Virus record (IMG/VR): IMGVR_UViG_3300031994_000034
DNA length: 64,000 nucleotides
Source: a virus
Strand: one strand, 5' to 3'
The notes under the pieces are model-generated. The model did not search any database, had not been told where the DNA came from, and saw nothing but the letters and a program-made list of their open reading frames with translations. Positions 4,799-38,012 of the stretch are shown one piece after another. How positions within the stretch are numbered: the first letter of the stretch is position 1; each line of letters opens with the position of its first letter. The position numbers and the translations under genes were made by a program.

Positions 4799-5635
4799 AT
4801 GGCAAAAAAACAACGAACACACCAGCTACGTCACATCGTAGCCGTGTCAAACAACAAAGGCGGAGCCGGCAAGACCAGCACCGTCCTGAACCTCGCATCG
4901 GCCATCAGCCGGCGCATCGAAGGTTACAGAGTCCTCGTCATCGACTGTGACCCGCAGCGCAACCTCTCCTACTTCCTCGGTTGGGACGACCGACGCGAAC
5001 TGGATGGCTCCCCCACCCTCTACACCGCCCTGTGCAACGAACAGCAGGGGCTTCCAGTCTATCGTGCCGACAACGGCCTGTACTACACTCCGGCCTCCGT
5101 CAACCTGAACGGTATCGACGCCATTCTTTCCCTGCGTCCCAATCCCAGCAAAGCACTGAAGGAAATCCTTTCAAGACCCATCGACAACCGTACCGATGGT
5201 ACTGTGCTCAGCGATTCTGTCGCTGAGAGTTTCGACTTCATCTTCATCGACACCCAGCCCGCCATGTCGCGCATGACCTATAACGCCCTCTACGCTGCAG
5301 ACGGCTACATCATCCCCACAGAACTGGAAGAGGCCAGCGTCAAGGGTATGGCCAACATCGCCGTAGCCGCAGGTAAGGTGGGAGCCGACACGGGCAACCT
5401 CACCATCCACGGTATCCTTATTACCAAACTCGACGCCAAGCTGCGCTCCGCCAAACTCTATGAGCCGCAAATCCGCCAGTCGTTCCGCGAAACCTTCCAG
5501 ACGGCCATCCGCCGCTCCAAGGACATCATCGAGAGTCAAGCCCTCCGCGAGGACGTGTTCACCACCTACTCCGGCGGTCGTGCTGCAGAAGACTATACCG
5601 CCCTCGCCACCGAGTATCTGAGAAAGTTCGCTTAA
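4799..5635 (+). CDS. parA: ParA/Soj-family partition ATPase
   Basis: Deviant Walker A box VSNNKGGAGKTS, then DCDPQ and the downstream ParA-like layout. Confidence 0.9.
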   Translation: MAKKQRTHQLRHIVAVSNNKGGAGKTSTVLNLASAISRRIEGYRVLVIDCDPQRNLSYFLGWDDRRELDGSPTLYTALCNEQQGLPVYRADNGLYYTPASVNLNGIDAILSLRPNPSKALKEILSRPIDNRTDGTVLSDSVAESFDFIFIDTQPAMSRMTYNALYAADGYIIPTELEEASVKGMANIAVAAGKVGADTGNLTIHGILITKLDAKLRSAKLYEPQIRQSFRETFQTAIRRSKDIIESQALREDVFTTYSGGRAAEDYTALATEYLRKFA

Positions 5636-5639
5636 ATAA

Positions 5640-6019
5640 TCATTCAAGCATTTACTTATTTAATCACACACTTATTTAATTATTTATGTATTCACTTAGA
5701 TGCTCGTTCACTTATTTGCTCAACTACTCAAACAAGCAGATGTCTGTTTAATCATATAAGCAAAACCATATTTAATTAGTTAAGCAAAATAGCATATAAT
5801 CATATAAGCAGATAAGCAGATAAAGAAATACTCGTAAGGCAGATATGCAAATAAGTAGGTAAGTATATGAGCGGACAATCATATAAGCAGATAAGTATAT
5901 GAGTGGTTAATTACATAAGCAAACAAGTATCTAAGCAAAAAAGAAGATGGCCAAGTTATTAAAAAGAGTACGCGCAAAGAAATCATTTAAGTATCTAATC
6001 ATTTAATCAGATAAGTATT
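5640..6019. repeat. AT-rich centromere-like repeat field (candidate parS)
   Basis: CTTATTT copies in the first half. ATAAGCA/ATAAGTA and AATCATATAAGCA (three copies) in the second half. Related motifs flank the module at about 4565-4605 and 6538-6560. Confidence 0.45.
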
Positions 6020-6541
6020 ATGGTAAAGAAAGACAAATTCAAGCAGATGCAGCAGGGTGGGGGAGTGACAGGCTCCTTCGTCGAGTCCCTGGTGCAGGCC
6101 GCCACCACCACAGCGGCCATTCAGCAAAAGGCCGAACAAGAAGCCGCCGCACAGCAGGGGGCCGGGCATCAGATAACCACGAACAATCCGTCAGGCGAAT
6201 CCGATGCCTCCCCGTCTGAGGTCCCCGTCGAGGGGCGGACCACCCTTACCGTCACGCCCGTGGCCGCCCGACAGCCCGGCGGCGAATGGCAATCCATAGA
6301 GCAGCCCAAATTCATGCGCCTGCCTAATCCGCAAATCCCACTCAACGAGTACAATCTGGTTAGCCACTATTGCTCCAGCCTCCCCAATATGACCCGCCAG
6401 GACTTCGTGGAACTTGCCATCGTCGAAAAACTCCACGCCCTCGGGCGACTCTCCGACGAGGAGTTCACCGCTCGACAAACGGAAATACGCAACCGCCCAC
6501 CACGCGGCCAACGGAAAGGAACTAAGCAAACAAGCAGGTAA
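6020..6541 (+). CDS. hypothetical protein, candidate ParA partner by position
   Basis: 173-aa ORF immediately after the repeat field. The C-terminal segment reads MTRQDFVELAIVEKLHALGRLSDEEF. No ParB motif recognised. Confidence 0.55.
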   Translation: MVKKDKFKQMQQGGGVTGSFVESLVQAATTTAAIQQKAEQEAAAQQGAGHQITTNNPSGESDASPSEVPVEGRTTLTVTPVAARQPGGEWQSIEQPKFMRLPNPQIPLNEYNLVSHYCSSLPNMTRQDFVELAIVEKLHALGRLSDEEFTARQTEIRNRPPRGQRKGTKQTSR

Positions 6542-6580: not shown

Positions 6581-7051
6581 ATGCAACAATTCAGCCACGA
6601 CTACACCAAGGTCAGCGAGGCTATGGAAAGCCTCTATTCTGCCACGCGGCTCATCGCCAACGAATGTTACGATGCAGCCCTTGAACGTATTAACGAAGCC
6701 CGCACCATCCTCAGCGAGTACCTCGCCCAGGACAACATGATTCCCGACAACGACGTTGCCGACGGTTGGGTACGCCACAGCGAAGCCCAGGCCGAACTCG
6801 AGGATCTGCGCAGCAGGGTAGGGGACACCCATCGCAGTGCGCCCGACGGTTCGCGGCCCTCAGTAGAAATGGACAGAAAAGAACAAATCATCAAAGAACA
6901 GATTGACGAAGCATGCGTCATGCTTGATATTCTAACAGAATCGATTAAGAAAAAAGCCACCATAGAACCGAACGAAAAAGCCAGCATTAGAGAACTATAT
7001 TACAAGTGCTGGGGTTATATGACACTGGTTGATTCGTCCGATAAATATTAA
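6581..7051 (+). CDS. hypothetical protein
   Basis: 156-aa ORF on the same strand. No family recognised. Confidence 0.55.
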   Translation: MQQFSHDYTKVSEAMESLYSATRLIANECYDAALERINEARTILSEYLAQDNMIPDNDVADGWVRHSEAQAELEDLRSRVGDTHRSAPDGSRPSVEMDRKEQIIKEQIDEACVMLDILTESIKKKATIEPNEKASIRELYYKCWGYMTLVDSSDKY

Positions 7052-8389: not shown

Positions 8390-8486
8390 AATACTCACCC
8401 TTTAACTCCACGCCGCCAGCCAGCCACCGCGCCGACTGGCGGTTTCTTTTGCCCATCATTCCGCTCATATCCTCGAAATGGCTCGC

Positions 8487-9190
8487 CTCCCGTTAGGACA
8501 AACCTCCATTCGCGTCTGCGAAACGCGCGTGCGTAACGCATCTACAATGAACTCCCGTTAGGACAAACCTTTCTTCTCCCAAGCGTAACGCGCTTAATAT
8601 CAGCCATTCATTGCAAGGTTTGTCCTAACGGGAACCCGCCGTCACACCTCTCCAGTCCGACCTTCCAATATCATCCCGCCCCGGTTCACTCAAAAAACTC
8701 CCATCAGAACAAACCTCTCCAGGTAGAAACTTATAACGTCTTAAAAATCAATAATTAAAATGAAAAAGAAAGAAAACTCCTCGATTCGAGATAAGTATTT
8801 TTTTGTATATTTAAGAATACGATATAGTATATAGACGCGGCGCAGTGGTTGTAAATCAGCTACTTGCGTCAAAAAAAGTTTGTCCTGCCTGGAACTTTTA
8901 TCCGCAAAAGTTTGTCCTGATGGGAACCGAGTTTTGCCCTGCCTGGAATCGTGCTTTGTCTCAGTGGGAGCACAGGTTTGTCCTATCTGGAGGTTTTATT
9001 CATGAGGTTTGTCCTGATGGGAGCCGGCTTTTGTCCTGTCGGGAGGTTTTGTCCCAACGGGAGCACCACCATGCGGTTTGTCCTTTTAGGAAAAGACTTT
9101 TTGTCTTTTCCGGAAATGTAGGTTTATCTTCTTCGGAAACGCACGTTTATCCTTTTCTGAAACCGAAGTTTGTCCTTTTCGGAAGCGGCA
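8487..9190. repeat. iteron array with AT-rich spacer (candidate replication origin)
   Basis: Four copies of GGTTTGTCCTnnnGGGA(G/A)C-type repeats at 8487-8716 (three inverted, one direct). AT-rich block at 8720-8830. Thirteen direct copies at 8877-9185 spaced about 22-23 bp. Confidence 0.75.
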
Positions 9191-9291
9191 AAACATAACT
9201 CTTTGACCAACAAATCAAACGAATTTGAATAAAAAAGTGCTTAAAAATATAATTTTCTCCCTTTTCGTTTGGAGGTTTATTTATTTATTTA

Positions 9292-9299
9292 TACCTTTG
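9292..9299 (+). promoter_or_regulatory. -7 box TACCTTTG
   Basis: Exact TACCTTTG followed by CCCGCAGCTACAAC, 32 nt upstream of the ATG at 9331. Confidence 0.55.
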
Positions 9300-9330
9300 C
9301 CCGCAGCTACAACTCATTTTTATACTCATC

Positions 9331-10845
9331 ATGGGAAGAAAAAAGAAAGAGAAGAGTATCACCGTAGGTATCTCCGACCTCATCTACCAGCCGCACAAGA
9401 TGTCGCGTCTGCCGGCGCTCGACAGTCGCGTGGCCTCGCGCACCATCCTTGCCATCCTGCAACGTCTGCAGGGACTCTTCGCCCTGGCCCGTGCTCAGGA
9501 ACGCGACCCGCAGCTTTATCTGAAGTTCGAGACCGACCAGTTCGAGGTGAAGAAGTCGGCCACCAGCAGCTTCGAGCGTGGCGACGTGTTGTTTAACCTC
9601 TCCCTCTCCGACATCGCCGAGCCCAACCACTACCCGGAGGTCCGTGCCGCTCTGAAGGGACTGGAGCACGTCAAGGTACTCGTGCCTGTCAAGGAGGAAC
9701 CGGGCAAATACCGCACCTCCTCGCTCATGGACATCAAGGGAGAATACGATGCCGACGGCAATCTCATCGGTACCAACTTCTCCGTTATCGTACCCCGCAT
9801 CACCGCCGAGAACATCCTCGACATCAACCTCCTTGGTGGGTTTAGCAGATTCTTACTTTTCACCGCTTCACAGTTCCGCAGCGACTACGGCTACACGCTC
9901 TACATCCGCCTCTCCGACGAATGGCGCCGCTATGGCGACGTCTTCGAGATAGGCTACGAGGATCTGCGTCAGAACATGGGCTTCGTCCTGGAGAAAGAGG
10001 AATACAAGGACAAGGACGGAAAGGTTAAGGAGCGCATCATCGACCACACCAAGAAGCACGCCTCCTGGTCGCTCTTCTGCCGCTACGTCCTCAACCAGGC
10101 ACAGGAGGAACTGCAGATGATGGCCGATCGCCAGCCGCCCGTCACCGACTTCACCTTCTCCTACGAAGGCCTGCTCAACGGTCAGCCTTTGCCTAAGTAC
10201 AAGCGGCCCGACGCCATCCGCTTCACCATCCACCCCACCGCCGTAGGTCGCAAGTTGGCTGCCGATACGGCCTTCTCTGCCCAGAGCATTCAGGCTCGTC
10301 GCATGATGACTGACATCTTCGGTCTCACTGAAGGCCAGGCTCGCACCTTTATGCGCCGCGTCACCCCCGACAATGTGGGCGACCTCCTGCGTGTGATGCA
10401 GCAACTCCAGTCTGACCTCGATGCCGGACGCCGCAAGGCCAACAACCGCACCGCCGTTGCAGTCGATGAGATAAAGAAGTTCCTCAATAAGCAAAAAGAG
10501 GATGCCATCATAGAAGCCGAGGAGGTACCGACTACTCAGTGTAATCCGACTATTCCTCCGGCTACTCAGAGTGTAGAATCCGAGACCGTCGCCTCTCCCG
10601 ACTCCCGCTGGCAGCAGTTCATCGACCAGGTGCTCGCCGACTGCCCCACCGACAACGATCGCGCCATGCTCGGCCCTTTCCTCCGCGAAAGAATCTGTCA
10701 GGCCGTCTTTGCCGACGACACCCTCGCCCTCACCGTCGGCACCCAAGCCTCCTACGACTGGTTCCGTGACTCCTACGGCTCCTTCTTTGCCAAGGAAAGA
10801 GAAAAGCACCTGCCCGGCATTGAGATAAAATTTTTCCTCGACTAA
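9331..10845 (+). CDS. putative iteron-binding replication initiator
   Basis: 504-aa ORF directly downstream of the iteron array. The N-terminal ISDLIYQPHKMSRLPALDSRVASRTILAIL resembles Rep_3-type initiators. The call is mainly positional. Confidence 0.5.
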   Translation: MGRKKKEKSITVGISDLIYQPHKMSRLPALDSRVASRTILAILQRLQGLFALARAQERDPQLYLKFETDQFEVKKSATSSFERGDVLFNLSLSDIAEPNHYPEVRAALKGLEHVKVLVPVKEEPGKYRTSSLMDIKGEYDADGNLIGTNFSVIVPRITAENILDINLLGGFSRFLLFTASQFRSDYGYTLYIRLSDEWRRYGDVFEIGYEDLRQNMGFVLEKEEYKDKDGKVKERIIDHTKKHASWSLFCRYVLNQAQEELQMMADRQPPVTDFTFSYEGLLNGQPLPKYKRPDAIRFTIHPTAVGRKLAADTAFSAQSIQARRMMTDIFGLTEGQARTFMRRVTPDNVGDLLRVMQQLQSDLDAGRRKANNRTAVAVDEIKKFLNKQKEDAIIEAEEVPTTQCNPTIPPATQSVESETVASPDSRWQQFIDQVLADCPTDNDRAMLGPFLRERICQAVFADDTLALTVGTQASYDWFRDSYGSFFAKEREKHLPGIEIKFFLD

Positions 10846-10865
10846 GCCTGCGTCTTACCCCTGCG

Positions 10866-10910
10866 CCTTGCGGTTTCCCCGCCCCTGCGCCTTGCGGTTT
10901 CCCCGCAAGG
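10866..10910 (+). repeat. tandem CCCCTGCGCCTTGCGGTTTCCCCG units ending in hairpin CCTTGCGG-TTTCC-CCGCAAGG
   Basis: Two adjacent copies. The palindrome at 10890-10910 is the same one found inside the RT and primase genes. Confidence 0.85.
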
Positions 10911-10953
10911 AAACAAGCAAGAGAGGGCCGCAACCACCTGGCACGCTGCCAAT

Positions 10954-10984
10954 AAAAAAGGCGGCCACACCGACCGCCTTTTTA
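10954..10984. terminator. bidirectional intrinsic terminator
   Basis: AAAAAAGGCGG-CCACACCGA-CCGCCTTTTT, with an A-run on the left and a T-run on the right. Confidence 0.6.
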
Positions 10985-11195
10985 AGTTGTAGCTTTGCAT
11001 AAGAAGGTAAGAGATTGCACAAAGGTACGAATAAGCGAGCATAGTACAAAATAAAAAGGCAATTTTCTTTCGGAATATTGAGCGAAAGTACCTTCGACGA
11101 TAGTCAAATCGCACGAAAAAACGCAAAATCAAATACGAATTAACAGATTTTAACCAAACGAAAACACGCCCTCTCGGCTTTCTGATTACTCTGCC

Positions 11196-11807
11196 TCACT
11201 CTCCACTCTTAACTCTCTTCTCCCTCCTCTGCCATTCCCTCCTGATGGCATCCACATGGTAGCTTGGTGTCTTCGTTTCCTCGCAGAACGCCTCCACCAT
11301 CTCCTTGGCCGGGTACCTGCGTCCGCCCTGTTCCTCCGCATATTTCTGGTCGAAGTCCGCCACTGCTGTCCAGAACGTCTTGCGCACGATGCCCTGCAGC
11401 TTCGTCGCCTGCTGTCTGCCGAAGCTCACGTCCCACGTCCACGGCCTTACTACGCCGAGCCGCGTCAGGCACATCTTCGGGCACTCGATGGGTACGAACA
11501 GCGCCAGCTCATCGCGTGTCACGCCGTACAGCTCCGCTGTGGCCTCGGCATCCAGTGTCATCCCGGCCTCGATGCAGTTCCGGCGTGTCACGCTCATGCT
11601 GCCCTTCACCTTCACCGGCTCCATCGTGTCCTCCGCAGCCTGCATCCTGAAGGTTGCCTTGGCTCCCGGCAGGTGCTGCAGGCTCACCACCCGCCGCCCG
11701 TGCGCCGTCACCTCGCCGCCCAGCTCCCGCTCCAGCCAGCCCTGCATATAGTCCGTCACCCTCAGCCACGCCATCGCCGGCTGTCCTCCCTTGCTGTTGT
11801 TAGCCAT
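11196..11807 (-). CDS. hypothetical protein
   Basis: ORF 11196..11861. The ATG at 11807 (MANNSKGGQP...) lies downstream of the minus-strand -7 box. Confidence 0.6.
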   Translation of the reverse strand: MANNSKGGQPAMAWLRVTDYMQGWLERELGGEVTAHGRRVVSLQHLPGAKATFRMQAAEDTMEPVKVKGSMSVTRRNCIEAGMTLDAEATAELYGVTRDELALFVPIECPKMCLTRLGVVRPWTWDVSFGRQQATKLQGIVRKTFWTAVADFDQKYAEEQGGRRYPAKEMVEAFCEETKTPSYHVDAIRREWQRREKRVKSGE

Positions 11808-11832
11808 CGTTCTGTCTTTGGTTTCTTCGGCA

Positions 11833-11840
11833 CAAAGATA
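11833..11840 (-). promoter_or_regulatory. -7 box TATCTTTG (minus strand)
   Basis: The reverse complement of caaagata is TATCTTTG, 26 nt upstream of the ATG at 11807. Confidence 0.45.
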
Positions 11841-11872
11841 CAACTTTTTTCTGAGCTTCAATCACCCATCGA

Positions 11873-12068
11873 AAATTATTAGAAAACGCCCCAAATTATT
11901 AGGATTGCCCCATTTCTAATAATTTGTCTAATAAAATATCAATCAACGACTTACGCCAATTTTTGCCATTTTCAATTATTAGAAAAGAATATTTTGTAAT
12001 AGATTGGCACACAAAAAGATACATCACGTTTTGAGGCAAATTATTAGAAAATGCCCAAATTTTAGGTA
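11873..12068. promoter_or_regulatory. operator-like AAATTATTAGAA repeats
   Basis: The 12-mer (or a near copy) occurs at about 11873, 11973 and 12037 in forward orientation and at about 11915 inverted. Two copies extend as AAATTATTAGAAAAyGCCCnAAATT. Confidence 0.35.
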
Positions 12069-12444
12069 AACTATAAAAAACATAAAAAACTGCAGACACA
12101 ATCTTATTACTTCACAATCCTCATCACGTCGCGCAAGAGCTCCCCGTACTCCTCAATTAGTAAAAAGACATTTTCAAATAAAAGGAAAATGTTGATATAT
12201 AAATAGTTATATATATAGTATAAATAATTCTTTAATATTTTTACTATACTTTATAAATCAAAAAAACCTCGAATAATTAAAATTCTACAATATAAATAAC
12301 ACAAAATCAGCGATTTGTGCCGTATTTGCCGACTTAATATCTCCCGAATATCCTGATATTTTTGCGGCGCTTTTTGGGCCGCTGCGTGTAATAAGTGTTT
12401 AATCTCTTGCGCGTTATGCTGAAAACCCGTACCTTTGCATCGCA

Positions 12445-12597: not shown

Positions 12598-12795
12598 TCA
12601 ATTCATAGTTCATAGTTCATAGTTCATAGTTCACTTTTCTCAATTCATAGTTCATAGTTCATAGTTCATAGTTCACTTTTCTCAATTCATAGTCCATAGT
12701 TCATAATTCATAGTCCATAATTCATAGTCCATAGTTCATTTCAGTTCACTTTTCTCAATTCATAGTTCATAGTTCATAGTCCATAGTTCCGCTCG
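12596..12795 (+). repeat. largest heptamer array (AGTTCAT/AATTCAT)n with higher-order TTTTCTCAATTCATAG units
   Basis: About 200 bp of 7-nt units punctuated four times by CACTTTTCTCAATTCATAG. Confidence 0.9.
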
Positions 12796-13590: not shown

Positions 13591-13690
13591 GTACTCGGAA
13601 TACTCGGAGGACTCAGAAAACTCAGAGTACTCGGAAAACTCTGAATACTCGGATTACTCGGAATACTCTGAGTACTCCGATTACTCCGAA
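13589..13690. repeat. 9-nt array (TACTCnGAn)n
   Basis: gagtactcggaatactcggaggactcagaaaactcagagtactcgg... about 11 units, self-complementary through GAGTACTC. Confidence 0.9.
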
Positions 13691-14091: not shown

Positions 14092-14577
14092 TCAGCCCAG
14101 CCCTTCGCCGCTGCCGCCCTGCGTGTCGCCGCCCGAGCTGGAGCCGCCCTGAGTCGTGCCGCTATCGGTATCGTCCTGGTTGTCGTCATCGTCAGGGTCG
14201 TCTTCGTCCGTGATGAGCTTCACACTCATCGCCTGGACTATCTCGCGCATCTTCACCGAGGCGCGGAACACCAGTTTCTTCCGCCTGATCTTCACGTCCG
14301 CCGCATCGTCCGCCGCCACCGTCGAGATGCTGGGCGACAGCGTACCGATACCCAGGTCCACCGACCGTCCGTCCTTAATCGCGTCCTCCACGGCCAGCAC
14401 CATGTAGCGCAGCACAATCTCTGCAGTCGCCTGCTGTAGTCCCGTCTCGTGACTGATTTCCTTAGCCAGCCGCTCCAGTGAGAACGGGTCCGCCAACCGG
14501 CGCCGGCCCACGAACTTCACTTCCTTCTCCTTGCCGAAGCCTATCTTCGCCTCGGACTTGACATAGTGCAATGCCAT
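14092..14577 (-). CDS. HU-like DNA-binding protein with acidic/Gly-rich tail
   Basis: The core LAKEISHETGLQQATAEIVLRYMVLAVEDAIKDGRSVDLGIGTL resembles Bacteroidota HU-fold proteins. The C-terminus reads DDPDDDDNQDD..GGSSSGG. Confidence 0.6.
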   Translation of the reverse strand: MALHYVKSEAKIGFGKEKEVKFVGRRRLADPFSLERLAKEISHETGLQQATAEIVLRYMVLAVEDAIKDGRSVDLGIGTLSPSISTVAADDAADVKIRRKKLVFRASVKMREIVQAMSVKLITDEDDPDDDDNQDDTDSGTTQGGSSSGGDTQGGSGEGLG

Positions 14578-14972: not shown

Positions 14973-15488
14973 ATGGAAAGAAGAGAGATTAAACTACCTG
15001 TCACAAAATTGAAGGGTTATCTGAATGAGGTGGGCATCCCCGTCAAGGTGCTGGCAGAGATGGCCGACATCAATCCCGTGCATCTGTATAAGTGCTTGGC
15101 CGGGGAGGTGGACGAGCGTAATGGTTCTGTGCGTACTCTGAGCGACGAGAATGTGACACGTCTGCAGGAGGCTTTGCACCAATTTTCGCTCCGGCTAAAG
15201 TACATCTTTATATTTTATAATACCGACAAGGAGGTGCGCAAGCGGAATGGACGCTGCTACTGTCCCGACTGTGTGGAGCAGATTAAGACGCAGTTGGCTC
15301 CGTCGCTGAGCATTCTGCCGTTCATGCACTATGCGTTGGGGTGGAATCGTAGTAAGGTGCGCAATGTGATGGACTTCAAGAACAGCATCGCCTATGGCAA
15401 TATCAGTCGGGACGACGTGGACCGCATCAACGTGACGCTTGCCGAAGTCGCTACCCGGCTTGACATATTAACCCTGATAAAAGACTGA
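14973..15488 (+). CDS. hypothetical protein, possible HTH regulator
   Basis: ATG at 14973 within ORF 14931..15488. Segment VKVLAEMADINPVHLYKCLAG is HTH-like. Confidence 0.55.
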   Translation: MERREIKLPVTKLKGYLNEVGIPVKVLAEMADINPVHLYKCLAGEVDERNGSVRTLSDENVTRLQEALHQFSLRLKYIFIFYNTDKEVRKRNGRCYCPDCVEQIKTQLAPSLSILPFMHYALGWNRSKVRNVMDFKNSIAYGNISRDDVDRINVTLAEVATRLDILTLIKD

Positions 15489-15599: not shown

Positions 15600-16010
15600 C
15601 CTTTTCGGTTCCAGCCAAACCACTCTATACATGAAGCGCACCCCGCGCCTCGCTCGGGGCCTCGGGTGGGTGCCGACCCCTTTTAGGGGTCGCATATATG
15701 CCGACCGACCGACCACCGACCAAGCAGCGCCCCACTCCCCATAGGGAGTGACCACCCACCGATGCCGACCCCCCTCCCTAATGCGCCCACCTAACGCAAG
15801 GCTAAGACAGCCCCAGAGGGGCAGTCTTAAAAGTCCGATTTGGTGGGTCGGTTGTCGGACTGGGCAGCAGGGTCGGCCATCCCCTCCATGAGGGGATGAT
15901 GCCTTATGGGGTCGGCAAGGTAGGACGGATTCGGGGCAACCCCATAGGGGTTGAGGTTAGGCTGGGGGTCGAAAGCTGCCGATGGCGTGGACGCGCGCGA
16001 GGCCCCAACA
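15600..16010. repeat. ORF-free GC-rich block with GCCGACC / GGTCGGC motifs and CCCC-loop-GGGG hairpins
   Basis: TGCCGACC appears three times forward (about 15670, 15699, 15763). GGGTCGG-type copies appear four to five times inverted (about 15845-15970). Hairpins include GACCCCttttaGGGGTC, CTCCCCataGGGAG, CATCCCCtccatgaGGGGATG and CAACCCCataGGGGTTG. Confidence 0.6.
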
Positions 16011-16083
16011 CTTTTTTAACATTCCGAAGAATGTTAAAACAAGTGTTAAAAAATATTTCCTCATGACGCGCGCCTCGGAGTCG

Positions 16084-16145: not shown

Positions 16146-16847
16146 ATGGCAACTCAAAATTCCAGCCGTGCCCTTAAGGGCAACACCGAGAGCAAGAACG
16201 CTGCAAAGCAAGTGAACAACCAGCCCGCAACCCGTAGGGTTGTCGAGACCCGAGCCATGTGGGATGTGATTTTCAATCACAGCGTCTCGCTGGTGGTGGC
16301 CTATGCACGTGGCCAGAAGCCGACCGACCCTCGCAAAGGCTTTGCCTTTGAAGCTATTGCGACCCAGCCCCACAGTCGAGCCTATGCACAAAACCTCCTC
16401 AGAGGTTTTGTGACAGGCAAGGCCGGCAAAGTCCTGAAGGACTTTGATGACCTATCCAAGGCCGAAAGCCGTGAGAAGATTGCTGTAGCAATCTTGCTCG
16501 ACTGCAAGTTGGCCAAGGAGGGCACCGAAGGTGCCAAGCGCATCTTGGGCAAGGCCACGCCCCAGCGTGAGAAGGCATTCGCCGAGGCAGTTCTTACAGA
16601 ACTGAGCAAACCTACCGAGCAGCCTACTACCCCCAAGGGGGGTAGGGCGAAGAAGTCCGACGACAAGGCTACTGCCCCTAAGGGCAGTAAGGCCAAGGGC
16701 GAGAGCAAGCCTAAGGCTACCACCCCTAAGGGTGGTAAGGCCAAGAGCGAGAGCAAGCCTAAGGCTACCACCCCTAAGGGTGGTAAGGCCAAGAGCGAGA
16801 AGGCAACTGCCCCTAAAGGGGCAAAGGCTAACGGCAAGGCCAAGTAA
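16146..16847 (+). CDS. Lys/Ala/Pro-rich histone-H1-like protein
   Basis: ATG at 16146 in ORF 16089..16847. C-terminal tail reads TTPKGGRAKKSDDKATAPKGSKAKGESKPKATTPKGGKAKSESKPKATTPKGGKAKSEKATAPKGAKANGKAK. Confidence 0.7.
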   Translation: MATQNSSRALKGNTESKNAAKQVNNQPATRRVVETRAMWDVIFNHSVSLVVAYARGQKPTDPRKGFAFEAIATQPHSRAYAQNLLRGFVTGKAGKVLKDFDDLSKAESREKIAVAILLDCKLAKEGTEGAKRILGKATPQREKAFAEAVLTELSKPTEQPTTPKGGRAKKSDDKATAPKGSKAKGESKPKATTPKGGKAKSESKPKATTPKGGKAKSEKATAPKGAKANGKAK

Positions 16848-16884
16848 GTAAGCCTACGGCTTAACGGCCTACCCAGTACAGCCC

Positions 16885-16911
16885 TCACCCCTTAGGGGTG
16901 GGGGTTTTTTG
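16885..16911 (+). terminator. intrinsic terminator
   Basis: TCACCCC-TTAG-GGGTGGGGG followed by TTTTTT. Confidence 0.65.
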
Positions 16912-16914
16912 TTG

Positions 16915-17800
16915 CCGTCCCGATACGTGGGCGGCCACACACGGCCTGGGCGCATAATGCACGCCCACGAATCGCGATCGCGCCCCCGTTCCTTGGGGGT
17001 AGGGTCTGGGGAGGGGGTCGCTGGGTGGACGCCCATAACGGCTTCGGAACGTGGACGGCCACGGCGCGACGGCATGGGCGTCCACCCGTCGCGACATCGT
17101 GGGCGTCCACATCGTCGCTGGTGGGCTTCCATTGTCGGGCTGGGCTTTGGCCGTCCACCTAAACGCGGAGTGGTCGCCCACATGAGGGGAGTGGCAGCCC
17201 CTAAACGCGAAACGACGTGGACGGCCATAACGCATGAACGTGGACTTCCACCTGACGGGAAAATGGACGGCCAGAGGTGCCTAATGGCCGCCCAACGTGG
17301 ACGGGTGTGGACGTCCATTGTGGAGGGTGGTGGTCGCTTATTGGCCGTCCATTGTGGACGGAAGTGGACGCAGGATGTGGGCAGGGGTGGGCGACCATCG
17401 TGGCCTTATCTGGCCGTCCACATTGGACGCGGGTGGTCGCCCATCGTGGACGAAGCTGGACGCTTATTGGCCGCCCATCGTGGGCGGAGGTGGGCGCAGG
17501 GTGTGGGCTTATTGGCCGCCCATCGTGGGCGGAGGTGGGCGCAGGGTGTGGGCTTATCTGGCCGTCCACATTGGATGCGGGTGGTCGCCCATTATGGACG
17601 CGGGTGGTCGCCCATTATGGACGGGAGTTGGACGGCCACCTATCCGCGTGTTGGACCCCCACCTAAAGGCGCAATGGACGGCCACGCGGGTGAAATGGCC
17701 GCCCACCTATTTGCGTTGGCCGCCCACCTGAAGCGCGCATGGACGCAGATGGACGCGCCTTAATTGGGCGCCCACACACGGTGGGCAAGCCTGCTAATCG
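16915..17800. repeat. dense array of TGG(A/G)CG / CG(T/C)CCA motifs, many as 7-3-7 hairpins
   Basis: Hand count of about 28 forward and about 19 inverted copies. Examples: CCGTCCAttgTGGACGG and CCGCCCAtcgTGGGCGG. A perfect 45-bp tandem duplication lies at 17463-17552. Reading frames are open on both strands with no gene signals. Confidence 0.85.
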
Positions 17801-17909
17801 CGCGAGTCCACGCGCAGGAAAAAATGAACTTTTTTTAACATCGTAGATGATTAAAAAAAGTCAATTTTGCGGACCGACCCCAAATTTGGAAAACCGATGT
17901 TCCGTGTCG

Positions 17910-17917
17910 TATATTTG
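17910..17917 (+). promoter_or_regulatory. -7 box TATATTTG
   Basis: Upstream of the ATG at 17976, preceded by the hairpin CTTTTTTTAA..TTAAAAAAAG. Confidence 0.4.
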
Positions 17918-17975: not shown

Positions 17976-18989
17976 ATGGCAACACGTAACGACAAGCGCA
18001 ATGGCGCAAACAACGCAACTCACGAGAACATGAACGCTGCAACGCAGCAAGTTGAGAACCGCAAGAACGGCAAGGCTCCTGCTGCCCCTACGCCCCAGGA
18101 TGGCACCCCCGTACCCGCAAAGCTCGAAGAGCTCGAAGCACGTCTGACCGAGAAGACCACCGCCCTTAACGAAGTTAAGAAGCAGTCGCAGAAGCTGTCC
18201 GAGAAACTCGCTAAAGCGAGAGAGGACGCTGACAACCAGCGTTACTGCGTAGCAGTAAGTCGTCAGAACTTGGGCACGGCTACGGAAGACGACCTCGCCA
18301 TCATCGCCAGCCGTAAGGCTGAGAACAACACGGCCGAGGGTTTGGCAAAGTTCTTTGCCAAGGAGTTCAAGGATAGCGACGAAGTCGCTAAGGCTCGTGA
18401 GGATGTCCGTGCCGAGGAGGGCTCTCTCGCTTCGGCTATAGCCGAAACCACTCGCCAGTGGAACAACGGCTACGCCGTTCTCTACGGCTCTATCGGCATG
18501 AACAAGCAGAGCTTGAAGTCCATCCCAACCCTGCTGAAATCGGCGGGTTTTAACCCCTTCCTCCAAGTTGCCACTGCCGACGGCCTAAAGGCCGCTACGG
18601 TCACTCGGACAGCCGTCCGCAAGAACGGCAAAGCCGTCAAGAAGGACGGCAAGAGGGTGTATAGATACACCCTCAGAGAGCGGACCAAGTGGTCGGCCTA
18701 TGGTCTCTTCGAGACTATAGAGCGCAACTTCCGGATGGCCGATGTGTACACCGAGGACGAACTGAAAGTTCGTATCGAACTCCTCAACACCCAAGTCAGT
18801 GCCCTAAAGGCACTGAAGAAGGCCAAGGAGGATGCCAAGTCGGACGTCCCCGAGGTAGCGGCTAAAGCCGCCGAGAGCGAGAAGGCTCTGGCCGATGCTG
18901 CTGAAGCAGCAGGTAAGGCCGTCAAGGAGAACACCAACGCCACCACCCAGCACACCACCAAAGGTGGTAAGGCCGAGAAGGTCGCTTAA
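17976..18989 (+). CDS. Lys/Ala/Glu-rich coiled-coil protein
   Basis: 337-aa ORF rich in K/A/E heptad-like runs. Same upstream and downstream layout as 16146..16847. Confidence 0.7.
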   Translation: MATRNDKRNGANNATHENMNAATQQVENRKNGKAPAAPTPQDGTPVPAKLEELEARLTEKTTALNEVKKQSQKLSEKLAKAREDADNQRYCVAVSRQNLGTATEDDLAIIASRKAENNTAEGLAKFFAKEFKDSDEVAKAREDVRAEEGSLASAIAETTRQWNNGYAVLYGSIGMNKQSLKSIPTLLKSAGFNPFLQVATADGLKAATVTRTAVRKNGKAVKKDGKRVYRYTLRERTKWSAYGLFETIERNFRMADVYTEDELKVRIELLNTQVSALKALKKAKEDAKSDVPEVAAKAAESEKALADAAEAAGKAVKENTNATTQHTTKGGKAEKVA

Positions 18990-23809: not shown

Positions 23810-23870
23810 AATTCACAATTCATAATTCACAATTCATAATACACAATTCATAATTCATAATTCATAATTA
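23810..23870 (+). repeat. heptamer array (AATTCAC/AATTCAT)n
   Basis: caattcacaattcataattcacaattcataatacacaattcataattcataattcataatt, between two + genes. Confidence 0.9.
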
Positions 23871-25237: not shown

Positions 25238-26830
25238 ATGGACAAGATATTATCAATGTTTTTCGAGGCAGGGCGGTGGGAATACGCCATTGCCAAGGGT
25301 GTGGGTAAGGACGTTCCGAAGAACGTGTTGTACCAACTATGCAAGCCAGAAGTGCGGATGCAGATGTACGAGGCTATCCGCACGGGACAGTACGAGATTG
25401 CACCGCCACATACGGCACTTATCCCGAAGGATACGCCAGGCGAGTTCCGCACGGTGTATGTGAACGAGGCAGCTGACCGTGTGCTGCTATCCATTGCCAA
25501 CGACCTGCTGTTTGAGTTGATGCCAGACAGGGTGCATCCGCGTTGCAAGTCGTACTTGAAAGGTGTTGGTTGTGGGAGGATAGTGCAGGAAGTCAGTACG
25601 GCCATCCTTGCGGCAAAACCGCAAGGTACAGAGAAATTGGGCTGGAAGAGCGACCTGAGTAAGTATTTCGACTCGGTACCTATCCGATTCATAGATGCTG
25701 CCTTCGACATGGTAGAGGAACGGCACGGACATTCGGCCCTGATCGATGTACTGCGAAAGTATTACCATGCCGACCTCTATTTCACTCCCGATGGGGTGCT
25801 GGAAAGCAAGTACCAAAGTCTGAAGCAGGGTTGCTCGGTGGCATCGTGGCTGGCCGACGTCTTACTCTATCACATCGACGAGCGACTGACTAAGTTGAAC
25901 GGCTATTACGTCCGCTATTCGGACGATATGCTCTTTATCGGGCCGGATGCAGAGCAGGCTATGCAGGTCCTCACGGAGGAACTGGCAGCTATGGAAATGC
26001 GGCTCAACCCTAAGAAGGTGGAGTGGCTGGACGAGCGGCACTGGTTTAAGTTCCTGGGCTTCTCTATCCGTGGCAAGGACATCAGTCTGAGCAGTACGAG
26101 AATCAAGACGTTTCAGAGGGAGATTGAGAACAGGACAGTGAAAAGTGGAAAATCTAAGTTCACAATCACTTCGGCTCTCAACTCCGTGAACCGCTATCTG
26201 TATCGTGGCGACGGACAGGGGCATTCGTGGGCAACGCAAGTGCTGCCTATCGTGAACGTAAGACAGGACATCGCCACGCTGAACCTGTTCGTGATGGACT
26301 GTCTGCGGGCTGCCTGTACGGGCAAGACGAAAGTGGGCGGTCTGGGCTATGACAAGCAGGGTAGGGACGGCTGCATCGTCCGTGGCAGGGGCAGGAATGT
26401 GAGTGCCAACCGCAGGAAGACGGGCGACGACATCGGCGGCTATCTGTCGCTGAGCTGTATGCAGAACGCGATGCGGACGAGCAAGGCGGCGTATGACTCG
26501 CTGGTGCGCTCACTCAACTTCTCGCAGAAAACGCAGAAAGCGCAGAAATCTGATGCTACGAGCATCGAGGAACTGGAGGCGGCGTATGCGGTGTATAAGC
26601 ACTCCATTCCGAGCGAAAGGACGATGGGGCGTGTGCCTCGCTTCTATGCGCTGCCCGAAAGCGAGTTGAGCAATGACGATATGCTCTATGGCGTTCCCCG
26701 TGAACAGGCGGAGCGCGAATTGGAGAAGGTGCTGGCAGGGTTCACGATGCCTGAAGGGGCAGGGTGGTTCTGGCAGAGCGAGAACGACAAGGACTTGGTG
26801 GTGCTGCGCTCATGGTGCAGTGCCGCATAG
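25238..26830 (+). CDS. reverse transcriptase (unclassified prokaryotic RT)
   Basis: RT motifs in order: IPKDTPGEFRTVYV (1), ADRVLLSIANDLL (2), KSDLSKYFDSVP (3), LKQGCSVASWLADVLL (4), YVRYSDDMLFIG with YSDD at 25916-25927 (5), MRLNPKKV (6), FKFLGFSI (7). A 230-aa C-terminal extension has no recognisable domain. Confidence 0.9.
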   Translation: MDKILSMFFEAGRWEYAIAKGVGKDVPKNVLYQLCKPEVRMQMYEAIRTGQYEIAPPHTALIPKDTPGEFRTVYVNEAADRVLLSIANDLLFELMPDRVHPRCKSYLKGVGCGRIVQEVSTAILAAKPQGTEKLGWKSDLSKYFDSVPIRFIDAAFDMVEERHGHSALIDVLRKYYHADLYFTPDGVLESKYQSLKQGCSVASWLADVLLYHIDERLTKLNGYYVRYSDDMLFIGPDAEQAMQVLTEELAAMEMRLNPKKVEWLDERHWFKFLGFSIRGKDISLSSTRIKTFQREIENRTVKSGKSKFTITSALNSVNRYLYRGDGQGHSWATQVLPIVNVRQDIATLNLFVMDCLRAACTGKTKVGGLGYDKQGRDGCIVRGRGRNVSANRRKTGDDIGGYLSLSCMQNAMRTSKAAYDSLVRSLNFSQKTQKAQKSDATSIEELEAAYAVYKHSIPSERTMGRVPRFYALPESELSNDDMLYGVPREQAERELEKVLAGFTMPEGAGWFWQSENDKDLVVLRSWCSAA

Positions 26831-31930: not shown

Positions 31931-32121
31931 TGACAACGAGAGCTATCAACGCAGCACTGCTCGCCGGAAAGGTGGTGGTGCTCAGGGACGACCCGCTGCT
32001 GTGTATCGTCCCCGACCTGTGGGGCGAGCTGGTGGTGGTGAGCCGAGGGCAGGAACCCTTCGACACCCGACCGGCTACTCCGAGCGACAAACGAAAAGCG
32101 GTCATCCTAATCAATTCATAA
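31927..32121 (+). CDS. hypothetical protein
   Basis: 64-aa ORF with an ATGA start-stop overlap with the upstream gene. Confidence 0.5.
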   Translation: MMTTRAINAALLAGKVVVLRDDPLLCIVPDLWGELVVVSRGQEPFDTRPATPSDKRKAVILINS

Positions 32122-32169
32122 TTCATAATTCATAATGCACAATTCATAATTCACAATTCATAATTTACT

Positions 32170-33636
32170 ATGACAACAATGAACTACAACATCGTCAAGA
32201 CTGCTGAGGGCAGCATGACGACGTACCGAGTGGTCGGTGCGGAACAGGCGGACAATCAGGCTATCTGTCAGGCTCTGACGGAGGCGGCCAAGGATGTGTG
32301 GCAGTACCTGACGGCAATGCCCGGTGCCTATACCGCCACCGAGATGAGAAAGACGGACCTTAGCCTGCGCAACGGATTGGAACTCCCCATGGAGTTGCAC
32401 ACGCTGCGTGTGGAGTGCGGAAAGTTCAACCTCTGTGTGAAGCCCATCGACGACTATGGGAAGCCAAACTACAGCACTATCTTCCGTGTGCTGACCGAGT
32501 TTGAGAAGTTGGCTCGTGTGAAGCAGGGCGACCGCGCTGTGTTCACGGTGGGCAAGGAACTGGGTGCGCTGGTGTGCGAGGCTCGTGTGGTGTTGCCAAG
32601 CGACATGAAGGCCATCTGCGCCTGCTGCGGTGACGACCCCCTGTACCCTTCGATGAGCTATCCCGCCCTCGACCTCGACCGCCGTTGCATCGTGGCTACG
32701 GACGCTGTGCTGATGGTGGCGAAGAAAGTCACCGTAGCCTCTATTCACTACGAGGACAAGGTACCCGAGACGTTCTACCTGCCCAAGGAGGTGGAGCGGA
32801 TGCAGGGTGAAGTGACGGTCCGGCTGTATGAGCAGGGCTGCACGGTCACGGACCAGAAGGGCACGGAGGTGAGCGTGGAGCATGAGAGGCCTTATCCCAA
32901 GTGGCACACGGTATGGCCGCCGTTGCGCGGTGGCATGACCCTCGTGGACAGCAAGGCATGGACAAAGGTGGTGAAGAGTGCCATGAACGGGATGCCGCAG
33001 AATAGCAAGTTGAAGGACGAGTCGCTGTTGCTGACCCACTATCCCGCATCGGCCAACCTCACGCTGAGGGGCTATGATGGTGCAGAGATGGTGAACGAAC
33101 AGTGTATCACGGACTGCGTGGCGACCGACGAGGTACCCTACCGCATAGGAGTGTACGCACCGCGACTGCTGAAAGCCCTGGCCTTGCAGCCCAAGACGAT
33201 GTGGATGGGATATTCGGAGTATGACACGCGGCCTACCCGCCTGGTGATGGAGAACGCAGAGGCGGAGATGGTGGTGGAACTCTATCGGTATGACGTGGAC
33301 GACCTGCGCGATGCGCTGATGCCGACGGATGAGGAGTATGTGGTGAGCGACACCCGCCGCCTCTATCACTGCTACGACAAGGACGGCTGGCTGCTGGAGC
33401 GGGTGGAAACGAAATATCCCACCTGTGGAGAGCTGAAGACTCAGAGTAATCTGAGTACTCCGACTACTCAGAGGACTCTGAGGGCTCGGAGAACTCCGAC
33501 TACTCAGAGTACTCCGACTACTCCGATTACTCAGAGTACTCCGACTATTCGGACTACTCCGACTACTCAGACCACCGCACCACTATCTCTCGCTGACCGA
33601 CTGCGCGAGGCCCTGCGGGCACGACTGGCAGCGTGA
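32170..33636 (+). CDS. beta-sliding-clamp-like protein with 9-mer-repeat-encoded Thr/Pro/Gln tail
   Basis: Segments RRCIVATDAVLMVAKK and ERPYPKWHTVWP resemble the DnaN patterns ATDghRLa and fPdY..viP. The tail TQSNLSTPTTQRTL..TPTTQSTPTTPITQSTPTIRTTPTTQTT comes from the array at 33439-33573. Confidence 0.45.
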   Translation: MTTMNYNIVKTAEGSMTTYRVVGAEQADNQAICQALTEAAKDVWQYLTAMPGAYTATEMRKTDLSLRNGLELPMELHTLRVECGKFNLCVKPIDDYGKPNYSTIFRVLTEFEKLARVKQGDRAVFTVGKELGALVCEARVVLPSDMKAICACCGDDPLYPSMSYPALDLDRRCIVATDAVLMVAKKVTVASIHYEDKVPETFYLPKEVERMQGEVTVRLYEQGCTVTDQKGTEVSVEHERPYPKWHTVWPPLRGGMTLVDSKAWTKVVKSAMNGMPQNSKLKDESLLLTHYPASANLTLRGYDGAEMVNEQCITDCVATDEVPYRIGVYAPRLLKALALQPKTMWMGYSEYDTRPTRLVMENAEAEMVVELYRYDVDDLRDALMPTDEEYVVSDTRRLYHCYDKDGWLLERVETKYPTCGELKTQSNLSTPTTQRTLRARRTPTTQSTPTTPITQSTPTIRTTPTTQTTAPLSLADRLREALRARLAA

Positions 33637-33709
33637 GCAATTCATAATGCACAATTCACAATGCACAATTCATAATTCACAATTCATAATTCATAATTCA
33701 TAATTGACT

Positions 33710-37837: not shown

Positions 37838-37999
37838 ATGACTGGCATCTATGGCCTCACCTTGCGGGCCTCGGACGGACGGGAACGACGCACGTTGGCG
37901 TGGCTCCCCACCGAGGCTATCCGGCAGGACTTCTACGAGAAAGCCCGACGCAACGGGATAAGTATAGTTATCAATTCACAATTCACAATTCACAATTAA
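37838..37999 (+). CDS. hypothetical small protein
   Basis: ATG at 37838. The C-terminus INSQFTIHN and the stop are supplied by a heptamer array. Confidence 0.4.
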   Translation: MTGIYGLTLRASDGRERRTLAWLPTEAIRQDFYEKARRNGISIVINSQFTIHN

Positions 38000-38012
38000 C
38001 AATTAAAAGACT

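Follow-up and report, generated by a model that had tools for sequence, protein, structure and literature searches.

What function is served by an interval of phage DNA in which a single short palindrome recurs dozens of times between two genes? The question is raised by positions 16915-17800 of a 64,000-nucleotide stretch of the IMG/VR virus record IMGVR_UViG_3300031994_000034 (this whole stretch is referred to below as the window). An earlier note on the window had described about 47 TGG(A/G)CG / CG(T/C)CCA motifs here, flanked by two genes for histone-H1-like proteins, and had offered three readings: an array of dimeric protein-binding sites, perhaps for the flanking lysine-rich proteins, a cruciform or single-strand hairpin field, or a highly structured RNA. 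The element that carries the interval is a large phage of Bacteroidales and has maintenance genes like those of plasmids. We regard it as highly probable that the interval is an array of protein-binding sites. The evidence for this conclusion, for the candidate binding protein and for the possible roles of the assembly is described below.

Motif, lattice and conservation of the array

The recount gave 46 hexamers in 16915-17800 (27 TGG(A/G)CG and 19 CG(T/C)CCA), in agreement with the number estimated previously and equivalent to a density of 52 per kb, compared with ∼1.5 per kb in the remaining window. Read in register, both hexamers are halves of the 10-bp palindrome TGGNCGNCCA. Perfect copies of this palindrome occur 25 times, all within 16928-17774, and 0 times elsewhere in the 64 kb; dinucleotide shuffles gave an expectation of 1.06 ± 1.02 copies and 0 of 100 shuffles reached 25. 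Copies with one mismatch number four inside the array and 28 outside it, the latter being at the chance level (∼30 expected over the whole window). Array sites were sought beyond the array, in the rest of the 64 kb and in 20 kb of flanking DNA, and none was found; the density of the motif is unique to 16928-17774 and not typical of the genome. The array and its principal parts are as follows.

16928-17774, no strand: the array, made up of TGGNCGNCCA in 25 perfect and four one-mismatch copies, together with degenerate sites and half-sites
17285-17629, + strand: dense central sub-array, with extra TGGNC half-sites that all lie on the + strand
17462-17551, no strand: perfect 45-bp tandem duplication (17462-17506 = 17507-17551), with two lattice units per copy
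16880-16910, + strand: intrinsic terminator of the upstream gene (12-bp G+C-rich stem at 16880-16906, followed by a T run)

Start-to-start distances of the TGGNCGNCCA units concentrate at 23 bp and its multiples, and when degenerate units are included about 37 positions of this 23-bp lattice are occupied. In the central sub-array the additional half-sites are placed at alternating distances of 13 and 10 bp (mean 11.5 bp), and the Fourier spectrum of the array has peaks at 23, 11.5, 7.67 and 5.75 bp. Averaging across overlapping half-sites gives the spacing of roughly 18 bp in the earlier note; the true lattice is one of 23 bp with a 13 + 10 bp sub-lattice. Half-sites show a strand bias of 50 versus 26. 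The 7-3-7 and 7-4-7 palindromes described earlier were found again, as were the 45-bp tandem duplication, a sign of recent growth of the array, and the longer near-duplicates (17377-17468 versus 17525-17616, with 80% identity). The central sub-array is the portion that expands and contracts among relatives, and a 170-bp insertion or deletion (indel) with respect to L003 maps there.

The array was aligned to that of L003, the closest relative with a complete array (the downstream proteins are 78% identical). The alignment contains indels of 1, 2, 1, 24, 170, 12 and 8 bp and 106 substitutions, which are distributed 37/32/37 across the three codon phases. The long open frames that had been noted on both strands are present, without a Pfam match for either strand. 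A coding sequence is ruled out by indels that are not multiples of three, by the lack of codon-phase bias and by the absence of Pfam matches; no conserved protein extends across the interval in this alignment, and 16928-17774 is non-coding. Identity between the two arrays is 95.8% for the eight specified bases of the motif, 75.8% for the spacers and 69% for the two N positions (Fisher p = 1.5e-9). Because the motif bases are so much better conserved than the spacers, this pattern marks selection on short recognition sites.

The same alignment bears on the proposals of a structured RNA or of a field of cruciforms or single-strand hairpins, both of which are scarcely credible. The array does fold better than its shuffled versions (z = -6.8 as RNA and -5.0 as DNA), but this is what any array of palindromes gives and nothing was found beyond that effect; the arms of the core are only 4 bp long. 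Conservation tracks the motif bases and not their pairing partners, and indels of 24 and 170 bp are tolerated. The strong terminator at 16880-16910, which is kept in L003, insulates the array from read-through transcription, and promoter-like sites were found neither by the earlier reader nor by us inside the array, which is probably untranscribed. Since there was no Rfam match at gathering thresholds anywhere in the window and the palindromes account for the fold z-scores, a known RNA is ruled out.

The gene-plus-array pair in two phage families

Three neighbouring genes on the same strand have to be considered as sources of a binding protein, together with the phage HU homologue encoded at 14092-14577.

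14973-15488, + strand: conserved neighbour of 171 amino acids (aa), found in family 1 only; the model has a predicted local distance difference test (pLDDT) score of 93 and two helical modules
16146-16847, + strand: gene of the candidate array-binding protein, 233 aa, defined by its open reading frame and by the family alignment
17976-18989, + strand: downstream coiled-coil protein, 337 aa, with a coiled coil, a small beta domain and a short basic end

The first 25 residues of the 233-aa protein are disordered; a conserved domain, probably helical and of ∼135 aa, spans residues ∼30-165, and the remainder is a variable tail. The tail is histone-H1-like, with a Lys/Pro/Ala composition and TPKGGKAK-like repeats, and its length varies within the family. 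The earlier description of two flanking H1-like genes thus applies to this upstream gene only; the 337-aa downstream product is mainly coiled coil, its basic part being confined to a short end. Neither the 233-aa protein nor its family has a sequence match in Pfam, PHROG or the PDB, and the family is tiny (33 cluster representatives among 1.84 billion proteins). To judge from these searches, the N-terminal domain is novel and belongs to a protein family without known relatives. A PDB sequence search gave nothing significant for the three neighbours or for the Rep-like protein described below.

Relatives of the locus fall into two families. In family 1 the array lies between homologues of 16146-16847 and 17976-18989 in 12 of the 13 loci, sometimes with one small gene inserted. 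These arrays have 11-30 recognizable sites with a period of 22-23 bp, and the lattice is retained in relatives down to 51% protein identity. The exception is L008 (contig NODE_131, 125,753 bp, 6.6× coverage), in which the array is absent and the N-terminal 80 residues of the lysine-rich protein are fused in frame to the homologue of the 337-aa protein (10001-11197, P0064, 398 aa). Either the array has been deleted in this variant or the contig is misassembled.

The N-terminal domain also occurs in a distant family 2, at 51% and 31% identity, which comprises L011-L013 from the human gut and the cultured Bacteroides phage BS-TP1. Here, an unannotated array of 1-1.4 kb directly follows the N-domain gene and consists of TGG-N4-CCA sites with a period of ∼21 bp; in L012, there are 26 sites in the array and 0.16 per kb outside it. 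BS-TP1 has a genome of 111.7 kb with genes for portal, terminase, tail, DnaB, primase and Pol III, and its GenBank record leaves the 1.5-kb interval of the array blank. No chromosomal copies of this phage were found (PMC12694917). The genes downstream of the family-2 arrays are unrelated to the 337-aa gene, and the N-domain family is the only gene common to the array neighbourhoods of both phage families. A metagenome-wide scan for three phased palindromes recovered the family-1 arrays and no new context: the other matches that were examined (L136, L140 and L148) are unrelated simple 23-bp tandem repeats and the remainder had few sites.

The gene-plus-array pair is thus the unit conserved across both families and, because it is, the upstream 233-aa protein is the best candidate binder; from these comparisons, we put the chance that it binds the array slightly above even. 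The earlier proposal of a dimeric binding array for the flanking lysine-rich protein is accordingly the one favoured here, on the strength of site conservation, the lattice in relatives and the linkage of the N-domain in two families. Binding by another factor, whether the 171-aa protein with its helix-turn-helix-like modules, the 337-aa coiled-coil protein, the phage HU or a host protein, is unlikely, although each of the first two has something to recommend it. The 171-aa protein is the best conserved of the neighbours (51-98% identity), and its modules weakly resemble Cro/XRE and paired-type helix-turn-helix domains; in the fold search, the model showed only non-significant local likeness to helix-turn-helix domains of the Cro/XRE, paired-box and HNF-1 types. 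In family 1 the 337-aa gene always lies immediately downstream of the array; its model has a pLDDT of 70 and gave no significant match in a fold search. However, homologues of these two proteins were detected neither near the family-2 arrays nor elsewhere in BS-TP1, the TGG-N4-CCA type of motif is common to both families, and the upstream N-domain is the sole shared neighbour. Of the possible binders named in the earlier note, the 337-aa product (17976-18989) does not accompany the family-2 arrays and neither, as far as tested, does the HU-like protein encoded at 14092-14577. On its modelled fold the 171-aa protein could be an alternative or accessory binder, and it or the 337-aa protein could be an accessory factor in family 1.

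Possible roles in genome maintenance

The explanation that we favour, tentatively and at somewhat less than an even chance, is that the array is a phased site of nucleoprotein assembly for the upstream protein with a role in genome maintenance, most likely a centromere-like one. A 10-bp palindrome implies a dimer, and at a spacing of 23 bp in family 1 or 21 bp in family 2 consecutive dimers would sit on almost the same side of the helix; dimers of the upstream protein would then occupy one TGGNCGNCCA palindrome after another. The extra half-sites of the central 11.5-bp sub-lattice could recruit further subunits, one per turn, and interaction between adjacent dimers would wrap or condense the DNA into one large nucleoprotein complex. 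Phased arrays are known to nucleate such wrapped or condensed complexes, as with SopB on sopC, StbA on stbDR, ParR on parC, λ O on its iterons, and p6 of φ29. The H1-like basic tails may make non-specific DNA contacts, bridge DNA segments or tether the complex to the nucleoid, and isolated sites beside both flanking promoters would permit autoregulation. The complex would serve in the maintenance of the extrachromosomal phage genome as a positioning or segregation site.

A centromere-like role is suggested by the gene-then-array layout, the number of sites, which is typical of centromeres and not of origins, the single locus per genome, the basic tail and the plasmid-like lifestyle. Taken by itself, a role in segregation or anchoring is possible but doubtful. 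Several observations weigh against the favoured explanation. No nucleoside triphosphatase (NTPase) gene adjoins the array. The case for DNA binding by the 233-aa protein is drawn solely from the linkage and the basic tail, and gp57 of BS-TP1 has no such tail. If the L008 variant is real, the array is dispensable for the persistence of at least that variant. The minimum of cumulative GC skew near the array in several relatives would fit an origin as well. Finally, family 1 already has a ParA-like locus with repeats of its own, and a second segregation device is not obviously needed. The ParA-like gene (4799-5635) lies 11 kb upstream of the array and is followed by 8-bp repeats at 5747-5930 (AGCAGATA, ∼13 copies), which also show periods of 24 and 32 bp; this segment is likely to be the partition centromere of a small type-I-like system with genes 6020-6541 and 6581-7051.

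The closest precedents for the favoured explanation are plasmid centromeres. sopC of the F plasmid consists of 12 × 43-bp repeats, each with a 16-bp inverted repeat, that are bound by SopB (PMC3177203). As in sopC, an array of dyad sites lies directly downstream of the gene of the (here putative) binder, the sites occur nowhere else on the replicon and one large complex is expected. Unlike SopB, the 233-aa candidate has no match to the ParB/SopB/KorB families in Pfam, PHROG or PDB searches. There is also no adjacent parA-parB pair, the nearest ParA-like gene, 4799-5635, being followed by its own small genes; the period is 23 and not 43 bp, there are about three times more sites and the host element is a Bacteroidales phage. 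The StbA/stbDR system of plasmid R388 and ParR/parC likewise combine a small protein with short helix-phased repeats, and StbA acts without an NTPase of its own and also regulates promoters (10.1101/2022.04.29.490116; PMC3098194). In those systems the repeats are direct, about ten in number, spaced at one per helical turn and placed upstream of the operon; here, where the binder is a candidate, the gene is followed by 29-60 palindromes at intervals of two turns.

The histone-like protein p6 of phage φ29 binds as a dimer per 24 bp and a monomer per 12 bp (11 bp in GA-1), with the DNA wrapped around a protein core, in a complex that acts in replication and in early and late transcription (PMC10899789). 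The lattice of 23/11.5 bp in the present array, known from the DNA sequence alone, is close to 24/12 bp. However, p6 reads bendability and not sequence and nucleates at the ends of a linear protein-primed genome, whereas the motif here is strictly conserved and internal, both in the 177.6-kb contig and in BS-TP1, and there is no sequence similarity to p6.

A variant of the favoured explanation dispenses with an NTPase altogether: the phased palindromes, coated with sequence-specific dimers, would be tethered to the host nucleoid by the H1-like tails, so that the genome hitch-hikes on it. By analogy this is conceivable, yet we consider it improbable. The family of repeats (FR) in oriP of Epstein-Barr virus (EBV) has ∼20 phased palindromes, and EBNA1, in which a dimeric, site-specific domain is fused to basic chromosome-tethering regions, maintains the episome. 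That system belongs to a eukaryotic virus and shares no homology with the present one, and tethering is here pure inference. If it were true, the device would be a bacterial analogue of FR/EBNA1 of EBV or of the terminal repeats (TR) and LANA of Kaposi's sarcoma-associated herpesvirus (KSHV), and it could explain the non-integrating episomal persistence of large gut and rumen Bacteroidales phages.

Other roles depend on the segments that surround the array.

15780-15999, no strand: isolated array-like elements before the promoter of the upstream gene (GCGCCCACCTAACGC at 15783-15797 and CGTGGACGCG at 15986-15995)
16912-17025, no strand: left border segment, ∼95% identical to L003
17830-17859, no strand: A+T-rich inverted repeat (TTTTTTTAACATC / GATGATTAAAAAAA) that separates the array from the promoter at 17885-17917
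17885-17917, + strand: promoter of gene 17976-18989, with TTTG at 17885 and TAtaTTTG at 17910-17917, presumably of the Bacteroidota type and overlapped by σ70-like matches

A lytic replication origin, in which the array would act as an oversized set of dyad iterons and the upstream protein as an origin binder that melts the A+T-rich inverted repeat for the phage replisome, is rather unlikely, but parts of the evidence agree with it. Repeats phased at about two helical turns are found in iteron-type origins (Rep3/RepA; the O-some of the λ origin), where they recur at ∼22-23 bp, and those of λ are, like the present ones, dyad-symmetric, dimer-bound and beside A+T-richer DNA. All relatives have an A+T-richer inverted repeat after the array, although its sequence differs from that at 17830-17859. 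Phages of the BS-TP1 type encode DnaB, primase and Pol III, yet have no annotated origin or initiator; positive GC skew begins near the array in the window and in BS-TP1; and φ29 activates replication by means of the 24-bp-periodic p6 complex (PMC10899789). In the window, 2 kb separate the array from the minimum of cumulative GC skew; in several relatives the distance is 1.4-5 kb, and the offset varies among them.

Against this, origins usually need 3-10 sites, and the 29-60 found here are about ten times the usual number. The adjoining DNA is only 56-62% A+T, with no strongly A+T-rich unwinding element, and within 8 kb of the array there are no DnaA boxes except for one weak site at 8898. A similar A+T-rich inverted repeat precedes the promoter of the upstream gene, so that the element looks promoter-associated. 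In BS-TP1, the detrended skew extremes coincide with switches in gene orientation and not with the array. No Phage_rep_O or replisome-organizer domain was detected by Pfam in any of the flanking proteins, and the likeness to the λ O-some is only architectural. The L008 variant, which has no array, also weighs against an origin.

A classical Rep-iteron origin, moreover, lies elsewhere in family 1. The 504-aa open reading frame 9331-10845 is distantly similar to syntenic proteins of L001 and L008 that have weak Rep3_C and Rep3_N matches, and it is preceded by at least 14 direct and three inverted copies of GTTTGTCCTnnnGGGA at ∼8480-9190 together with A+T-rich DNA (region 8440-9330). The iterons before the syntenic Rep gene are quite different in L001 and L002 (CGGACAAAAACATAAC and TTTCGACAAAT, respectively), while TGGNCGNCCA is constant in these relatives. 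Because the iterons change and TGGNCGNCCA stays, the array is not the iteron set of the Rep3-like initiator, and its assignment as the oriV iterons of that protein was ruled out. Judged by its gene and repeats, 8440-9330 with 9331-10845 is a classical-looking plasmid origin. Both it and the ParA locus lie 8-12 kb upstream of the array.

A second proposal is that the array forms a repressive block, acting as a transcriptional silencer, insulator or hub at the head of a long rightward early/anti-defence operon and switching that operon in the manner of φ29 p6 or of H-NS-like silencers. The array does always lie just upstream of the promoter of the next co-oriented block (ArdA-like, ArdC, methyltransferases and reverse transcriptase), half-sites occur beside both flanking promoters, the upstream protein has an H1-like tail and a phage HU homologue is encoded nearby. 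This role is nonetheless distinctly unlikely: the 64 kb and 20 kb of flanks hold no sites elsewhere, dozens of sites far exceed the need of one promoter, and the downstream gene differs wholly between the families while the array is kept. The elements at 15783-15797 and 15986-15995 hint, by their resemblance to array sites, at possible autoregulation of the upstream gene; half-site-rich DNA also precedes the homologous gene in L012.

A signal for DNA entry or packaging, either an injection stop like iss of phage T5 or a pac site with many terminase-binding repeats, is very improbable. The T5 iss is a large untranslated region of repeats and palindromes with eight DnaA boxes, situated in the terminal repeat (bioRxiv 10.1101/866236), and the present array, a large untranslated region of repeats and palindromes bordering an anti-restriction gene block, is similar in general look. 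It has no DnaA boxes, however, and nothing suggests that a genome end is close by; the distance to the terminase genes in BS-TP1 is ∼40 kb, and the two ends of that assembly share an overlap of 141 bp. An entry or packaging signal would also leave the linkage to a dedicated small gene unexplained.

The assembly proposed here is of a known kind, namely a phased array of dyad sites on which a nucleoprotein complex forms. What is new is the motif, the scale (29-60 sites), the family of the partner protein and the host group (large phages of Bacteroidales, one of them cultured). Members of this group, at ∼100-180 kb, are large phages that occur widely in Bacteroidales of the gut and rumen; the terminase search for BS-TP1 yielded >370 related stretches in IMG/VR, and the family-1 contigs are not among the 80 loci listed in that search. 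The array is the most conspicuous cis-element of these genomes and is unannotated even in BS-TP1. As this phage and its host (Bacteroides salyersiae BG8) are both in culture, the function is directly testable. If the array is a centromere or a tether, it would represent a new maintenance system with a new sequence-specific DNA-binding fold and possibly a stabilizing cassette for use in Bacteroides genetics; as an origin, it would be the first to be mapped for this phage group.

The element and further observations

The window locus has no DNA match in phage or plasmid collections. The window encodes, besides the ParA-like ATPase, several DNA methyltransferases, an ArdA-like protein, a reverse transcriptase, MazG and a 1136-aa primase-like protein. 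The parent metagenomic contig (177,591 bp) encodes in its flanks an endolysin (PG_binding_1 + Amidase_2; phrog_822, E = 6e-61), YopX, a Tad2-like protein and another HU. There are three relatives in IMG/VR; the lengths of the relatives' contigs group around 110-140 kb, and their sources are rumen and gut samples, with metagenome-assembled genomes of Bacteroidales among them. The ArdA-like protein, ArdC, PcfJ/K, the primase-like protein and the methyltransferases had first suggested the leading region and oriT of a conjugative plasmid. This assignment was dropped in view of the endolysin/YopX/Tad2-like flanks, the IMG/VR relatives and the cultured phage with a homologous gene and array, and no relaxase or type IV secretion gene was seen. 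The pMMCAT megaplasmid of gut Bacteroidales was also considered and rejected, as the locus and protein are unmatched in PLSDB and the pMMCAT paper mentions no such repeats.

The left border of the array contains the first TGGNCGNCCA-type 10-mer, at 16928, and a wide dyad, TGGGCG-CATAATG-CACGCCCA, at 16947-16967. Four G-tracts (GGGGGTAGGGTCTGGGGAGGGGG) at ∼17002-17022 form a G-quadruplex-type motif there that is identical in L003 and absent from more distant relatives; GCATAATGC-type motifs also border the arrays of L002, L012 and BS-TP1. Both flanking genes have an A+T-rich perfect inverted repeat 50-100 bp upstream of the -7 box (16010-16050 and 17830-17859). The inverted repeats of relatives (L001 9870-9910, L002 9880-9925 and L003 1290-1335) keep the position and differ in sequence. 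Between the 171-aa gene and the lysine-rich gene lies a GC-rich non-coding stretch of ∼400 bp (15630-16010) with several CCCC-loop-GGGG hairpins, which is partly conserved in L008 (9450-9850) and has no Rfam match; it may represent a structured RNA or a further cis-site. The family-2 array precedes a promoter-like site, after which comes a non-coding leader of ∼400 nt (L012 12180-12630; BS-TP1 locus L016 13440-13893), of which at least the 3' end is clearly similar in L012 and BS-TP1. This leader may be a regulatory RNA.

Among the unrelated tandem repeats met in the metagenome-wide scan, L136 1-170 and L148 180-360 have 7-8 identical 23-bp units containing TGG(A/T)CG(A/T)CCA, and one of these repeats lies immediately before a short-chain dehydrogenase gene; the likeness to the array motif is probably a coincidence. 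The reverse transcriptase of the window (25238-26830, 530 aa) is 68% identical to gp79 of BS-TP1 (79351-80613 of the record). GenBank calls gp79 a 'tail protein', yet its own note lists a PHROG reverse-transcriptase family. The annotated reverse transcriptase is another gene product, gp25; it adjoins gp27, the protein shown to be the target of a diversity-generating retroelement in the BS-TP1 paper.

GATC is strongly depleted in the whole window (0.6 per kb compared with ∼4 per kb expected for a tetramer), and CCGG occurs 0 times in the array. Both would fit restriction avoidance, and the element encodes many methyltransferases. Four to five AAATTATTAGAAAA-like motifs occur at 11880-12070 in an A+T-rich region (GC 37%) after gene 11256-11882. 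Short tandem arrays are found between genes at 12602-12789, 23810-23869, 32113-32165, 33638-33705, 37972-38004, 1420-1472, 13592-13690, 33456-33572 and many other places. Their units are of 7 bp (TTCATAG ×26; AATTCAT/CAATTCA ×5-10 at several promoter-side positions) or 9 bp (TACTCGGAA ×11, TACTCCGAC ×13 and ATCTGTGCT/ACACAGATT ∼×3 at more than eight places), and they could be operator arrays of a global regulator.

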